Shown piece by piece: positions 6,714 to 12,716 of a stretch of DNA of 12,749 nt. Under the pieces are notes generated by a model, which worked only from the letters and a program-made list of their open reading frames with translations, was not told the origin of the DNA and searched no databases. The DNA is taken from the NCBI GenBank assembly GCA_963721455.1, contig CAVRJG010000009.1:1-12749 (forward strand). The letters run 5' to 3'. Every line of letters begins with the position of its first letter. The first letter of the stretch is position 1. A program made the translations under genes and the position numbers. This DNA is from an uncultured Methanosarcinaceae archaeon (GTDB lineage: Archaea > Halobacteriota > Methanosarcinia > Methanosarcinales > Methanosarcinaceae).

Positions 6714-6926
6714 ATGAACTGTAACTGTAGGAGAACACACGGAATTCCCGCATTGTTTTCTTTTTTTATCCCTGGCATGGGCCAGCTTGTAAAGGGAGAT
6801 CTGTCCAAGGCACTTGGCATCTGGGTAGCCCTGATAATCTGTGGATTCATGAGCGTTATCGGAATTGGAATTTTAATGGGAATGGTTGTCTGGATTGCGC
6901 AGATATATGATGCCTATAATGCATGA
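6714..6926 (+). CDS. Small membrane protein, paralog 1 (70 aa)
   Basis: SD-like GAGGT upstream. Contains HGIPALFSFFIPGMGQLVKG, two hydrophobic helices and a terminal QIYDAYNA. Conservation with the adjacent paralog supports coding status. Confidence 0.88.
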   Translation: MNCNCRRTHGIPALFSFFIPGMGQLVKGDLSKALGIWVALIICGFMSVIGIGILMGMVVWIAQIYDAYNA

Positions 6927-7040: not shown

Positions 7041-7247
7041 ATGAACTGTTGCAGAAAACACGGAATTCCAGCATTATTTTCGTTTTTCTTCCCGGGCCTG
7101 GGCCAGCTTGTAAAGGGACATCTGTTCAAGGCACTGGGCATCTGGGTAGCCTTCATAATCACCGGAGCCGTGCATATTTTTGGGGCTGGCATTCCAATAT
7201 GGCTAATCATATGGATCTGGCAGATCTATGATGCCTACAACGCCTGA
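7041..7247 (+). CDS. Small membrane protein, paralog 2 (68 aa)
   Basis: AAGGT upstream. HGIPALFSFFFPGLGQLVKG...KALGIWVA...QIYDAYNA is closely similar to 6714-6926. Confidence 0.88.
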   Translation: MNCCRKHGIPALFSFFFPGLGQLVKGHLFKALGIWVAFIITGAVHIFGAGIPIWLIIWIWQIYDAYNA

Positions 7248-7417: not shown

Positions 7418-7530
7418 TACTATAAATATCTATCAAAATCTATCAAATTGATAGAAAACAGAAAGACAATCGATATCAATATCCATCTACATCTATCAAT
7501 ATCTATCAAAATCTATCAAATTGATAGGAA
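7418..7530. repeat. Two copies of the phased-repeat/palindrome element (centres 7447 and 7520)
   Basis: 7418: TACTATAAAT ATCTATCAAA ATCTATCAAA TTGATAGAAA. 7471: CGATATCAAT ATCCATCTAC ATCTATCAAT ATCTATCAAA ATCTATCAAA TTGATAGGAA. Confidence 0.95.
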
Positions 7531-7625
7531 ATCACAGTAATTGATCGAAGAACCGGGTAAAACTGAAGAAAATCTACTTCTTGCCCTTGCTAATCCAAAT
7601 AATATTAGATAAATTTTTAAATGTG

Positions 7626-8183
7626 TCAGTATTTGCGTACCATTTCCGCCTGCCATTTCGTTTCCGGCCACCCTCTGAAGCCTCTCAGCTTGTTTATATC
7701 GTCCAGATAATTTATCACTTCATCAGCCTGAAAACCAAGATCTCTAAGCACACATCCAAGGACTGTCCCGGTTCTGCCTATACCTCCCATGCAGTGGACA
7801 ACAATACCTTTTCCAGCATCCATTTCTTCTCTTATTACATTGGTTGCTTTTCTGACAAGCCACTCCTGTGTTTCAGGATCATATGGATTATTGCCATAGT
7901 GCAGGTCTTCTAATTCTGCAGAAAAAAGTACCTTGAGAGGATAAGGGTCATAAAAAACCTTTGAATCACAGAGACAGACAACACTTGAGAATCCCGCATC
8001 ACCAATCTTTTCCCAGGGCGTGCGCATCGCGGGGTGAGACATGCCAGCGAGAAGCACAGGCTCCTTAAGCACTACATACAGATTCAGTGGAATTCTTATG
8101 CCTTCTATTACAGGCATCGACTGCGGACTCAATAATGAGGGAAACATGCTAAGAGTATGAGGTTTGGAGATATAAATTTTCAT
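7626..8183 (-). CDS. Dual-specificity / protein-tyrosine phosphatase family protein
   Basis: Intact CX5R P-loop (VVHCMGGIGRTGTVLGC), upstream LAGMSHP and VVCLC, and downstream PETKWQ (Q-loop-like). The start could be a later Met. Confidence 0.92.
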   Translation of the reverse strand: MKIYISKPHTLSMFPSLLSPQSMPVIEGIRIPLNLYVVLKEPVLLAGMSHPAMRTPWEKIGDAGFSSVVCLCDSKVFYDPYPLKVLFSAELEDLHYGNNPYDPETQEWLVRKATNVIREEMDAGKGIVVHCMGGIGRTGTVLGCVLRDLGFQADEVINYLDDINKLRGFRGWPETKWQAEMVRKY

Positions 8184-8306
8184 TAGCTGGTTTGTGGCGG
8201 CTGGAAAGTTTTGAAGTCTGAACCAGAGTTATAGTGTAGTTTGAAAAAGTTATTTTAACTTAGGGGTATTGCTGGAAAAAAATCGGTTTTCAGTGAAAAA
8301 AACGAA

Positions 8307-8517
8307 AGATATCAGAATCTATCAAAATCGATCAAATTGATAGAAAAATGATGGGAAAATATTATCAAGGAACTTAGTCCATATGTAATATTTTAGTTAA
8401 GAAAACTATCAATATCTATCAAAAAGTATCAAATTGATAGAAAGAAATATAGGAGATAACTATCAATATCTATCAAGATCAATCAAATTGATAGAAAAAG
8501 ATAGAAAATGATAATAT
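8307..8517. repeat. Three copies of the phased-repeat/palindrome element in the divergent phosphatase/fic intergenic region (centres 8336, 8433, 8487)
   Basis: 8307: AGATATCAGA ATCTATCAAA ATCGATCAAA TTGATAGAAA. 8404: AACTATCAAT ATCTATCAAA AAGTATCAAA TTGATAGAAA. 8458: AACTATCAAT ATCTATCAAG ATCAATCAAA TTGATAGAAA AAGATAGAAA ATGATAATAT. Confidence 0.95.
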
Positions 8518-9808
8518 GAAACTCCCAGTGGTCCCTGAATTTTCAAAAGAAGCTCTTGAAGAAGCTGGAAAATTTCTGCATGATGATAAAATTGCAGAGT
8601 TAGCCCATAGATACAATGAAAGGTATCTGCACTGGGAGGAGTTAAAGCACAGGAAACTTCCCCTCGACCCGGTTATAATATGGAATTTTATGAAAATTTC
8701 AAGGAAATTAAAGGCGAGATCTCTAGAGTTTGGGGACTGGGTTTTCAAGTATAATTTAATAGACGAATTTCAGGAAAAACTTCATATTCTGGATAAATCC
8801 GCAGCAGGAAATCTTCTCAGCAGTCTTGAAGCCTTGCAGGACAATAGAAGAAAATACATAATCAGTTCCCTGATGGAAGAAGCAATAGCTTCAAGCCAGA
8901 TAGAAGGGGCAGCAACTACAAGGGAAATTGCAAAACGGATGCTGCAGGAAAACAGAAAGCCCAAAAATAAAGACGAAAAAATGATTGTAAACAATTACGC
9001 TACAGTGAAGCATATCGTGGATTTAAAAAACGAAGCCATCACCCCGGATAAAATCCTTGAAATCCACAGGATGATTACAAACGGAACCCTTGAAAAACCC
9101 GAATACGAAGGCAATTTCAGAGAAAACAACGAGATTGCAGTTTATTCCCATGACGGGACACTGCTTCACAAACCTGTAGAATACCCTGAAATTCCGAAAT
9201 TGATTAATGAATTGTGTGATTTTGCCAACAGCAAGGATGAAGATTTCATTCATCCGGTTCTAAAGGGAATAATCATTCATTTCCTGATCGGATACATCCA
9301 CCCCTTCAACGACGGCAACGGCAGGACCGCACGGGCTCTTTTCTACTGGTATCTTCTTAAAAATGACTACTGGCTTTTCGAGTACATGGCAGTATCAAAA
9401 GTAATAAATAATTCGAAAAAGCAGTACAGAAATGCCTACCTCTACACCGAATCCGACAGAACCCCGAACGATTCCGGCGACCTCACATACTTCATCAAAT
9501 ACAATCTTGACTGTATTAAAAAAGCCCTTGACGACATCCTCGAATACCTGGAAAGAAAACAAAAAGAGCAGTCTCAAGCCTTAAAAATCATAACCGAATC
9601 AGGGGATCTGACTTTAAGGCAGGCAGAAATCCTCAAGCAGTTCTTAAAGCAGCCTGAAAAACCCATCACAATTAAAGAAATAGTGACCACTTACAGCGTG
9701 GCATACGCCACTGCCAGAAGTGACCTGTTCAATCTTGAAAAGTTGGGTTACGTTGAAAAAAGGAAGGCTGGAAAAGAGTTTATTTTTATATTCAAGAAGA
9801 TTGATTGA
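8516..9808 (+). CDS. Fic family protein (AMP transferase), class II-type, with C-terminal winged-HTH-like domain
   Basis: Canonical HPFNDGNGRTAR (about 9299-9334). The autoinhibitory (S/T)xxxE(G/N) motif SSQIEG lies N-terminal to the core. The C-terminus LTLRQAEILK...ITIKEIVTTYSVAYATARSDLFNLEKLGYVEK has a wHTH pattern. Confidence 0.95.
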   Translation: MKLPVVPEFSKEALEEAGKFLHDDKIAELAHRYNERYLHWEELKHRKLPLDPVIIWNFMKISRKLKARSLEFGDWVFKYNLIDEFQEKLHILDKSAAGNLLSSLEALQDNRRKYIISSLMEEAIASSQIEGAATTREIAKRMLQENRKPKNKDEKMIVNNYATVKHIVDLKNEAITPDKILEIHRMITNGTLEKPEYEGNFRENNEIAVYSHDGTLLHKPVEYPEIPKLINELCDFANSKDEDFIHPVLKGIIIHFLIGYIHPFNDGNGRTARALFYWYLLKNDYWLFEYMAVSKVINNSKKQYRNAYLYTESDRTPNDSGDLTYFIKYNLDCIKKALDDILEYLERKQKEQSQALKIITESGDLTLRQAEILKQFLKQPEKPITIKEIVTTYSVAYATARSDLFNLEKLGYVEKRKAGKEFIFIFKKID

Positions 9809-9823
9809 GGTTTTAGGGTGCTT

Positions 9824-9873
9824 TGTTATCAGAATCTATCAAATTGATAGAACATGACAAAAATTAATAGACA
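9824..9873. repeat. Sixth copy of the phased-repeat/palindrome element just after the fic stop (centre 9843)
   Basis: TGTTATCAGA ATCTATCAAA TTGATAGAAC ATGACAAAAA TTAATAGACA. Confidence 0.92.
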
Positions 9874-10078: not shown

Positions 10079-12716
10079 ATGTCTGAACCATTGCCAGTTG
10101 AAATCACTAGAACAGGAATTTGGCAGCGTACACTTGCTTATCAAGAAGGAGATATAGATTCATTGTCAAAAGGCAGATTAAGAAATGCTTTCATAATGTT
10201 TCGAGAACGGGCAGAAATGCTTTCAAAAGAGATTTCTCGGGATTTGCCGGAATTTACTGTTCATGATATTACGCATATAGACGCCTTATGGGAATTGGCT
10301 AACCTAATAATTGGCCCTGATAACCACTTGACGCCTGCTGAAGCTTTTGTTCTTGGGGGAGCTTTTCTAATTCATGATCTTGGAATGGGACTAGCTGCTT
10401 ATCCAGAAGGAAAAGAAGCTTTACATAAAAATGATCGTTGGAATGATACAATTACTTACTTTTTAAAGGAAAAACTCGGACGTTTTCCAACAAAGGAAGA
10501 AATTGATATTCTTGATGAAGATATTGAAGATAAAGCGATTGGAGAAGTATTGCGTATCCTTCATGCAGAGAAAGCTGAAGAGTTGGCTTTTGTTGAATGG
10601 AAAGACGAATCATCCAGTCCAACAAGCTATCACCTTATAGAAGATCCAGAAATTCGCAATATATATGGATCAATTATAGGTAAAATAGCTCATAGTCATT
10701 GGTGGCCGGTTAAAAGATTAGATGAAGAATTTCAGACAATTCTTGGAGCTCCCTCAATTTTCCCAAATGAATGGTCAGTAGATCCGCTGAAACTTGCCTG
10801 CATTTTACGCTTGGCAGATGCGAGCCATCTTGATAGCTCAAGAGCTCCTGGATTCCTGGAAGCATTACGTAAACCTTCAAAGTATTCTAGTGAGCATTGG
10901 AAGTTTCAAGAAAAATTAAATAAGCCAAGAGTGGAATCGGATAGATTACTGTTTACTTCAGGAAATTCGTTTTCAATTGATGATTTCAATTCATGGTGGC
11001 TATGCTACGATACCCTACGCATGGTTAATCGAGAGTTTGGAGAAGTAGACGCTCTTCTTGCGGATAAGAATAAACTCAGATTTCGGGTCAGAAGTGTGGC
11101 AGGGATTGAAGACCCCGACCGTCTAGAAAGATTAATACCAACAAAAGGTTGGGTTCCTGTAGATGCAAGCATAAAGGTCTCAAATGTCTCATCTTTGGTT
11201 CACAAGCTTGGAGGTGAACAACTTTACGGAAAAAATAACACTATTCCTCTTCGGGAGTTAATTCAAAATTCGATAGATGCTATCAAAGCGAGAAGAATTC
11301 TTGATAATAGACCAGATGGACTGGGGAGATATAACTGTCCGGTCAGGAAAAGATTCTGAAGGTTATTGGATTGAAATAGAAGACAATGGCATTGGAATGT
11401 CTTCAGAGATCTTAAAAGGTCCTTTTTTAGACTTCGGAAATTCCTCTTGGGGATCTCGATTAATGCGTGAAGAACATCCTGGCTTATTAGCAAAAGGATT
11501 TCAGTCTATAGGTAGATATGGGATAGGTTTTTTTTCAGTTTTCATGTGGGGTAAACATGTTCAGGTTATTACACGACGTTATGATTATGCTCAGCAAGAT
11601 ACGATAGTATTGGAATTTAGTGGTGGTGTTGAATCTCGCCCAATATTAAGGAAAGCTCAAAGGAATGAATTTTTAAGGGATGGTGGTACGCGTGTTCGTG
11701 TTTGGATGGAAGACGAACTACAATTTGACATTCCGAAACTTTACTATAAGCAGGAACCGAACCTTGACAAAATTTGCTCTATTATTGCTCCAAGTATAGA
11801 AGTAAATCTATATATCCAAGAAAGAGAGGAAAAAATACCGAGAAAGATAATTTCTGCGTCTGATTGGGTTAATTTAGACAGTAAGAAGCTTTTTAATAGA
11901 GTTTTAGTTTATTCTGAAAACGAAATTACAGATAGTACTAACTTTTTAAATGTCATATGTGAAAATATAAAACCTTTGAAAGATGCTGAAACAAAATTAT
12001 TGCTCGAGCGTGTATTGTACCCTATAATGAAAATGGAAGATTAAAAGGTATTGTTACTGTTGGTGGTTTATACTCATGTACAATGAACAATATAGTTGGA
12101 ATATTTATGGGCGACTCAAATACTGCCTCCGAAATTGATGCTGAACCTATTATTAGTATTCAAGAACTTCATAGATGGGCAACTGAACAATCACATTTAG
12201 TTTCTAAAATGTATGATAATGGAGAACTTAGTTGAATGTGCTTCAGTAATAAGAGCACTTGGTGCTGACATTGGGAATCTTCCAGTAGCCTACTCAGAAA
12301 GTGGATGGAAGAACTCAGAAGAAATATCTAAATGGGCTAGAGAATATGACGAAATTATTTTCCTTCAGGATGAAGATTATTATATTCAGAGTCAGAAATA
12401 CAAAGAACTTAAAGTTCACAAAAACGTTCTGGTAGTAGCTGGTTGGTCTCCATCTCTCTTGAACTCTGAAGGACATTTTAGATGGCCAACATTAATTAAT
12501 GAATGGCCCGGAGAGTTTTGGTTTTACAAGAGAACAATGGAAGGAGTGGTTATTGAAGTCTTAGCAAAAGCTTGGTCTATTTCATTATCAGATATATTAT
12601 CAGTATCAAAATTTTCAGGGGATATTAGTTATGAGAGAGAAATAGGCATTGGGGATGGAAAATCAGTAATCAAAAGCGTAGATATAATTAAAAATCCAAA
12701 GAACTTTAGGATTTAA
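10079..12716 (+). pseudogene. HD-domain + HSP90-like GHKL ATPase fusion (~878 aa reconstructed), interrupted by three 1-nt frameshifts (pseudogene or sequencing error)
   Basis: HD motifs: FTVHDITH, LIHDLGM, HSHW, LRLADASH. GHKL boxes: LRELIQNSIDA, IEDNGIGMS, IGRYGIGFFS, GGTRV. Shifts occur at about 11318 (+1, RPD/DWGD), 11989-11991 (-1, KDAE/NKIIARAC) and 12221 (+1, MYDN/ENLVEC). The segment 11990-12235, absent from the ORF track, is open (NKIIARACIVPYNENGRLKGIVTVGGL...WATEQSHLV). Confidence 0.88.

Follow-up and report, generated by a model that had tools for sequence, protein, structure and literature searches.

Do repeated DNA elements that bracket single genes mark the boundaries of exchangeable cassettes, or do they serve a protein that is encoded between them? 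The question is raised by a window of 12,749 bp, the entire contig C9 of an assembly of 3.94 Mb in 73 contigs, whose host is regarded as a methanogenic archaeon because a gene for methyl-coenzyme M reductase alpha is present in the assembly. Within positions 7420-9850, around a phosphatase gene and fic, the gene of a Fic AMP-transferase, lie six copies of a directional element made of short direct repeats and a palindrome. In the initial annotation they were proposed as recombination or insertion sites of a cassette-capture system. The answer favored here, with considerable confidence, is that the elements are predicted cognate operators of the Fic protein encoded between them, a class II protein of the SoFic/CccR type, and that they most likely let Fic control its own gene via its C-terminal winged helix. 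They are read as protein-binding operators because their sequence tracks the helix of the adjacent Fic over about 90 loci, and because arrays of them flank a TATA-like box.

Each element consists of one to four direct repeats ATCTATCAAN, phased at 10 bp, followed by a 15-bp palindrome CTATCAAATTGATAG with arms in a 7-1-7 layout. The final ATCTATCAAN repeat doubles as the left arm of the palindrome. The palindromes start at 7440, 7513, 8329, 8426, 8480 and 9836, and all six elements have plus orientation. The elements and the two genes between them are:

7420..7454, plus strand: E1, two 10-bp repeats (the first degenerate, CTATAAATAT) and palindrome CTATCAAATTGATAG; a distal array, 190 bp past the small gene sm68, with a left flank homologous to the first fic-promoter array of relatives
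7473..7527, plus strand: E2, four repeat units (two degenerate) and a perfect palindrome; the phosphatase stop lies 99 bp away
7626..8183, minus strand: PTP/dual-specificity phosphatase, open reading frame (ORF) of 185 residues (Pfam PTP-SAK 1.5e-11, Tc-R-P 3.3e-10)
8309..8343, plus strand: E3, distal fic-promoter array with repeat variant TATCAGAAT
8406..8440, plus strand: E4, upstream member of a conserved, putative operator pair; palindrome at -89 from the fic ATG
8460..8512, plus strand: E5, proximal array; palindrome 8480-8494, at -35 from the fic ATG
8516..9808, plus strand: fic, class II Fic AMP-transferase, 430 residues (Pfam Fic 6.4e-21, HTH_DeoR 5.7e-5)
9826..9850, plus strand: E6, a single repeat and a perfect palindrome, 28 bp past the fic stop

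The positions given to the six elements in the initial annotation, their order relative to the two genes, their constant orientation and the centre-to-centre distances of 73, 97 and 54 bp were all confirmed. On the right side of E5, GATAG/GATAA repeats with a 10-bp period reach the fic ATG. Repeat variant TATCAGAAT is common to E3 and E6 and is typical of the element downstream of fic in relatives; homology to the fic upstream region of relatives begins at 8310, in E3. A search for the palindrome at up to two mismatches returned 12 matches, which are the six window sites on both strands; 0.07 were expected by chance, and 12 were reached in none of 200 shuffles. Across the 3.94-Mb assembly, both the palindrome (at most one mismatch) and the repeat pair are confined to the six window sites, and a reversed-pattern control gave no match in the whole assembly. 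No known RNA is indicated in the intergenic arrays, since an Rfam scan of the window returned 0 families at gathering score.

The protein encoded between the elements has both an enzymatic and a putative DNA-binding part. Its catalytic motif HPFNDGNGR (residues 262-270) agrees with HPFx[D/E]GN[G/K]R and is invariant in 22 aligned relatives. The inhibitory helix motif (S/T)xxxE(G/N) is N-terminal and reads S126-S-Q-I-E130-G131, of which S126, E130 and G131 are invariant. The PADLOC SoFic model PDLC03963 is matched at 5.5e-48 by residues 101-428, over profile positions 36-353 of 361; by this match to the profile of an anti-phage family, a defense function of the window Fic is putative. The best PDB sequence match is 7xux (CccR) at 1.7e-12, and SoFic was also matched. 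The C-terminal part is encoded as follows:

9614..9793, plus strand: winged helix-turn-helix coding region, residues 367-426 of Fic

A C-terminal winged helix, as in other class II Fic proteins with this tail, is indicated by Pfam (HTH_DeoR at residues 368-419), by an AlphaFold model and by Foldseek. The model, computed with 22 relatives, has a mean pLDDT of 85.2 and ends in helices 367-378, 386-393 and 397-409 followed by a two-strand wing. Foldseek retrieved SoFic (3zcn and 3eqx, the top matches), CbFic2 (8cil) and CccR (7xux). The third helix (H3, residues 397-409), which opens with Y397-A398, is the predicted recognition helix.

The elements travel with fic among relatives. The pattern of repeat plus palindrome, at no more than one mismatch, was surveyed in 177 genomes of the family and is present in 42, nearly always as one cluster each; the reversed control pattern was found in 0 of the 177. 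Fic orthologues (E ≤1e-40) are encoded in 60 of the 177. An element lies within about 100 bp of fic in 19 of the 20 genomes that have a Fic orthologue at least 80% identical, and the sole exception has a fic fragment on a small contig. Genome loci were then pooled with metagenome loci (80 kept of 111 confirmed) to give 29 window-clade loci, some of which are near-duplicates (for example L080-L084 with L049), so that counts among them are not independent. At least two arrays stand upstream of fic in all 27 of these loci that have upstream DNA, the orientation of fic is matched by 100 of 100 elements, and an element follows within 200 bp of the fic stop in 16 of the 28 loci that have downstream DNA. 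As a separate observation, a perfect two-repeat element was found in another genus (locus L067, 3884-5105, genome G007) about 300 bp from a short Fic gene of 300 residues; this Fic is only 26% identical, and the element is in the opposite orientation to the gene.

The most specific evidence comes from the sequence of the half-sites. Relatives of Fic at 44-93% identity have the same upstream plan, namely two or three 10-bp-phased direct repeats and a terminal palindrome, usually in two arrays, with the clade-specific half-sites ATC, ACC, ACT, GCT and CCT. Where the half-site changes, the direct repeats and the two palindrome arms change together. The forms are:

CTATCAA/TTGATAG: window clade, with variants in the 53-63% clades
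CTACCAA/TTGGTAG: L124, L125
TACTAA/TTAGTA: L126-L140, L141-L155
TGCTAA/TTAGCA: L142, L151; CTGCTAA in L121, L122
TCCTAA/TTAGGA: L153

A scripted survey covered 100 Fic loci with the C-terminus, of which 89 have at least 130 bp of upstream DNA, and a palindrome was found by the script within 130 bp upstream in 61 of the 89. The helix class was defined by the two residues that precede an invariant T-A-R (Y397 and A398 in the window Fic). The half-sites were distributed over the helix classes as follows:

Y-A or Y-G: ATC 32, AAC 2, repeat-only ATC 10, none 16
Y-D: ACC 2 of 2
Y-Q or Y-E: ACT 21 of 21
H-Q: GCT 1, ACT 2
N-Q: CCT 1
L-Q: none in 2 by script; CTGCTAA by eye

Among the 89 scripted loci, an A/G-type helix was never found with ACT, nor a Q-type helix with ATC. 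This is the pattern expected if the winged helix of Fic reads the sites, and it would be hard to reconcile with sites built for an unrelated recombinase.

The position of the arrays relative to the fic promoter agrees with an operator function. The relevant feature is:

8445..8453, plus strand: TATA-like box AAATATAGG, between E4 and E5 and conserved there in the window clade

This box is presumed to be the archaeal TATA box and core promoter of fic; other clades have TTTATATA, TTTAAATA or TTTATAA at its position. The proximal palindromes of the window clade flank the box at about -35/-89 or -25/-80 from the ATG. In other clades with a two-array layout they are at -24/-78 or -34/-112, and the proximal array lies between the TATA-like box and the ATG. 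A spacing of 53-57 bp, as in the E4/E5 pair, recurs in the window clade and in the TACTAA-type clades. Symmetric sites in the gene's own promoter, as in CccR/SoFic-type systems, are represented in the window by the palindromes at -35 and -89.

On this basis a mechanism can be proposed. The C-terminal winged helix of Fic would read the half-site TATCAA, with the 10-bp-phased half-sites occupied by several Fic subunits on a single DNA face and the terminal palindrome by two that meet head-to-head. Autorepression of fic is suggested because E4 and E5 lie on either side of the TATA-like box and together extend over the presumed start of transcription, where Fic, once bound, would shut off its own, potentially toxic gene. 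E3, the E1/E2 pair beside the phosphatase and E6 past the fic stop would be auxiliary or duplicated operators. The least certain step is the role of these extra copies, which may make repression tighter through DNA looping, act as a roadblock between convergent genes that stops transcription from running into or out of fic, or co-regulate the phosphatase; the 3' and distal copies may also be leftovers of duplication. The arrays are direct repeats of 35-55 bp that flank single genes, and ordinary recombination between them would have led, time and again within the genus, to loss, duplication and altered order of fic and the phosphatase; this would account for the cassette-like appearance of the locus.

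Several observations weigh against an operator function for Fic. Simple promoter occlusion would need no elements at convergent 3' gene ends, and the downstream copy is kept in just 16 of the 28 window-clade loci counted above. Direct repeats mismatch a two-fold symmetric dimer, and the site geometry is unlike the 10-N26-10 of CccR. The TATA box and transcription start of fic are themselves deduced from sequence. The co-variation reflects few independent switches, with about five half-site types in related sequences. The script found no palindrome in 16 Y-A/Y-G loci, where imperfect ATC-type sites are seen by eye, and its match TCCTAAATTAGTA at -152 in L118 is off-type and looks spurious. Finally, Fic-less genomes of the same genus retain well-kept elements beside the phosphatase gene without a cognate winged helix. 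Two of them, G143 and G133, have no Fic match at E ≤0.01, and G111, G135 and G137 have only distant Fic paralogues, whose helices differ from that of the window Fic. These orphan elements point either to a recent loss of fic or to another user of the sites.

Such another user is the core of one rival explanation, by which the elements are operators that serve another host regulator, unlinked to fic, that binds DNA and would control fic, the phosphatase and their neighbors; the winged helix of Fic would have some other role. The persistence of well-kept elements in genomes without the window-type Fic fits this explanation, as does a single copy in an integrated element far from fic (G130), and CbFic2 is described as binding DNA without a known specificity, with DNA stimulating its activity (PMC10628234, in the part consulted). 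It is nevertheless judged improbable, given that, from clade to clade, the half-site varies in step with the recognition helix of Fic, and that in the host genome elements are found at the fic locus alone. A MarR gene lies near elements in some relatives, but here it is on the element-free contig C15. MarR was rejected as the binder on the same grounds, the MarR-Lon block being on C15 with no element outside C9. The distant Fic paralogues of the fic-less genomes were rejected on their differing helices. In genome G013 (L053, 8149-9702) a gene between two elements encodes a protein with AlbA_2 and HATPase_c_4 domains and a C-terminus that matches Pfam 'Fic-like_C' at 1.3e-6. The same array here holds the gene of another protein with a winged helix of Fic type, although its helix sequence differs. 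Its candidacy as an additional binder was likewise rejected, since inspection by eye showed no AYATAR-type helix. A replicon, integrated or extrachromosomal, offers another kind of user: the elements would serve it as iterons or as a partition site, and the 12.7-kb contig would be a small plasmid. The contig is indeed short (12,749 bp), and iteron/operator pairs of Rep proteins similarly combine phased direct repeats with an inverted repeat. The repeats here recur every 10 bp rather than about every 22 bp, however, the window has no replication, partition or integrase gene, and a TPR gene, p460 and sm70/sm68 are syntenic with the elements in complete chromosomes of relatives, all of which makes this explanation scarcely credible. 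An identity as iterons was rejected accordingly, with no Rep gene in the window and a chromosomal locus in relatives.

The explanation that takes the arrangement of the locus most literally assigns the elements to a dedicated system of site-specific recombination, in which a recombinase encoded elsewhere in the genome would act on them to take up, release and reorder cassettes of one gene each. Single genes are bracketed by elements in constant orientation, and the comparison of orthologous loci proposed in the initial annotation did uncover variable gene content and order, with several breakpoints in elements and some elsewhere. The order sm68, arrays, fic (forward), element, phosphatase (reverse) occurs in nine loci (L046, L049, L051, L055, L074, L080, L081, L083 and L084), with fic 3' of the phosphatase tail; in three (the window, L079 and L089) the phosphatase lies on the other side, across the arrays, and fic on the phosphatase 5' side. 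Eight loci (L052, L058, L059, L060, L061, L068, L069 and L070) have the phosphatase and one to three elements and no fic, while fic and arrays without an adjacent phosphatase are found in, for example, L047, L048, L077, L078, L085, L050 and L075. 'Empty' positions retain one to three elements, as at E1/E2 of the window and in G143, which has a single element at each of both positions that hold fic in relatives. Homology blocks between the window and genomes G132 and G110 terminate inside elements. The blocks shared with G132 end at 7463 and start at 7495 and 8310, all in elements. Set against G110, a close relative with a Fic of 96% identity, the window has two copies of an array pair of about 130 bp, and between them the phosphatase segment (about 7550-8309). 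E2 looks hybrid, its left part resembling the second promoter array of G110 and its right flank that of the downstream-of-fic element of relatives. Other genes are also found between elements, namely the AlbA_2/HATPase_c_4 gene of G013 and S-layer and histidine-kinase genes in G135, and in G130 an exact copy of the element neighbors the tyrosine integrase gene of an integrated element. This last copy (L057, 5500-7095, contig 11 of G130) is identical to G130's own fic-operator variant and is placed between the integrase and three 37-bp repeats, after which come genes of a primase-polymerase and a DUF5906 helicase; the locus is separate from fic.

Other parts of the cassette proposal did not hold, in that neither a co-occurring recombinase nor an attC or dif layout was found. 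As the initial annotation had stated, the window encodes no recombinase: 0 of its 14 ORFs match a recombinase or integrase family. The co-occurring recombinase that it envisaged did not emerge. Among 73 neighbor ORFs run through Pfam (23 plus 50, the 50 chosen from 97 clusters of unlabelled ORFs), no recombinase recurs near elements; one ISAZ013-type transposase, one IS605 OrfB, one DDE_Tnp_1 and the G130 integrase were met with, each at a single locus. Its statement that the sites match neither attC nor dif is likewise correct. An identity as attC was rejected: there is no GTT or AAC core and no RYYYAAC/GTTRRRY motif, and where attC has an imperfect palindrome of 57-141 bp that folds as single-stranded DNA, single strands of the elements fold into stems of just 7-8 bp at -3.6 to -6.6 kcal/mol. 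Integron cassettes were rejected with no integrase among the 14 ORFs and two genes on opposite strands, each with a TATA-like box. For pdif/Xer sites the arms are 7-1-7 and not 11-6-11, and the orientation is single (100 of 100) and not alternating. Sites of tyrosine recombinases have a core with a spacer of 6-8 bp, from which the 7-1-7 arms also differ. The resemblance of TATCAA to hix sites prompted a comparison with Hin/hix, which was dropped with a differing half-site spacing and no serine recombinase. Both genes carry promoter-like boxes of their own, the elements are limited to one locus per genome, and the site sequence co-evolves with the winged helix of Fic, which is unexpected for a recombinase site.

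Nor do all breakpoints fall in elements. An ATPase_2/DUF234 gene present in L079 and G143 is missing from the window; the right end of this difference is at the start of E3, while its left end (window 8239 versus L079 947) is in plain intergenic DNA. In L079 about 100 bp of fic-3'-like sequence and a downstream-type element (2654-2754) precede the promoter arrays of an intact fic; this 3' remnant of fic is the trace of a tandem duplication and partial deletion. The 24 sequencing runs retrieved are all metagenome contig sets, none of them of RNA, and share at most 0.30 of the sampled words; four were aligned to the window and yielded only short contigs of relatives. One contig (set X2) joins 7420 to 7494, with E1 and E2 collapsed into one array and 73 bp skipped, and contigs that step back within arrays represent variation in array copy number. 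A contig of set X1 joins the fic stop (9809), via 21 unrelated letters, to an element whose best alignment is with E3 (8309); this junction is read as the relative's own downstream element and not as the junction of a circle. Direct repeats of 35-130 bp around single genes are sufficient for deletions, duplications and reorderings in polyploid cells such as those of Methanosarcina. Dedicated cassette capture is judged quite improbable. A compromise, which is unlikely in turn, would give the operators a dual purpose, in which they silence fic and also delimit a toxic defense gene as a module that pops in and out of element-marked slots. Its further assumption, equally unlikely, is that this proceeds by recombination between the operators themselves or by a recruited, unlinked recombinase, the orphan elements being empty landing sites. 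If true, it would mean a cassette-like turnover of a defense gene in polyploid methanogens. Operators of the adjacent Fic, reshuffled by ordinary recombination, remain the preferred explanation.

The phosphatase has a conserved TATA-like box AAATTTATATC on the minus strand at about 8169-8179, which is overlapped by its first ATG (8183). Relatives start at the second ATG (8147), 26 nt past the box, as seen from conservation of promoter and start in 8 loci. The phosphatase therefore probably starts at 8147 as well, with 173 residues, and the distance of 26 nt from the box suggests a leaderless mRNA. The gene neighbors the window-type Fic only within the genus and stays by the elements when fic is absent. 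A functional pairing of phosphatase and Fic, for example in counteracting AMPylation, is possible. Further genes of the window are:

6714-6926 and 7041-7247, plus strand: sm70 and sm68, paralogous small genes
10079-11359, plus strand: HD-CE gene (Pfam PF24391, 1.9e-58)
11277-12044, plus strand: HATPase_c_3 gene (Pfam), overlapping the HD-CE gene by 83 nt

The products of sm70 and sm68 have 70 and 68 residues and are 69% identical, within a 218-nt repeat (D2). In relatives a gene of 612-659 residues is found between the two paralogues, and its counterpart in the host genome is on contig C39. None of the relatives examined has the HD-CE/HATPase_c_3 pair at this position, and PADLOC gave no match to it; it may be a variable-island or defense-like insert beside E6. 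In genome G109 (L046, 1527-5334) a Gabija-like pair, consisting of an OLD-family AAA_15/TOPRIM ATPase and a UvrD-type helicase split into two ORFs, lies beside the element upstream of the phosphatase.

Fic enzymes that carry a DNA-binding tail occur widely, and the SoFic anti-phage family is one such group. To our knowledge, DNA sites have been established for only one or two of them, and we know of nothing on the regulation of Fic in archaea. A literature search found no paper on Methanosarcina Fic palindromes, and a search that combined Fic domain, HTH, autoregulation and direct repeats yielded none beyond that on CccR and the other papers retrieved. The locus and its roughly 90 relatives offer a testable recognition rule, in which two helix residues correlate with two half-site bases. 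They also suggest that a conserved operator plan, with phased repeats leading into a palindrome and two arrays around the core promoter, extends to archaea.

Comparison with known systems places the locus among these regulators. Integron attC arrays and pdif modules have repeated sites between single genes and a variable gene content. The window elements likewise repeat between single genes, and gene content varies at the sites; in contrast to those systems, the window has no IntI or Xer-type layout, its sites have one orientation, its genes have their own promoters, and its sites co-vary with a neighboring DNA-binding domain. Repeated operators can thus mimic cassette boundaries and drive gene loss and reordering, which calls for caution in scans for mobile systems. 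Plasmid Rep proteins, on iterons and operators, and the omega repressor, on heptads, use one half-site both head-to-tail and head-to-head and bind cooperatively on one face of the DNA. The window elements share the occurrence of the half-site in both arrangements and differ in protein fold, in period and in the lack of a replication role at the locus.

SoFic of Shewanella oneidensis is reported in a preprint, as far as consulted, to bind as a dimer to the first 100 bp upstream of its own gene (10.64898/2026.07.09.737422), and is described elsewhere as a toxin that acts against phage by abortive infection, with a small antitoxin encoded downstream (PMC12249575, in part). The window Fic matches the PADLOC profile of SoFic and has SoFic structures as its top Foldseek matches; unlike SoFic, it has a PTP-type phosphatase gene as its neighbor. 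For CbFic2, DNA binding is ascribed to the HTH (PMC10628234). A close counterpart is CccR of Yersinia pseudotuberculosis, the structure 7XUX according to its authors, which by the sections of their account consulted binds as a dimer, via its HTH, to two inverted 10-bp boxes 26 bp apart in its own promoter and represses its own gene (PMC9755527). The window Fic shares with CccR the order of domains, the best PDB sequence match and the fold, and its gene, like that of CccR, has inverted repeats in its own promoter. The two differ in that the window has a contiguous 15-bp palindrome after 10-bp-phased direct repeats where CccR has two separated boxes, and several arrays per promoter with further copies at gene 3' ends. 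The host of the window is, moreover, archaeal, with a TATA-type promoter and no secretion context. The locus is thus predicted to be an archaeal, architecturally distinct variant of the known CccR/SoFic autoregulation.

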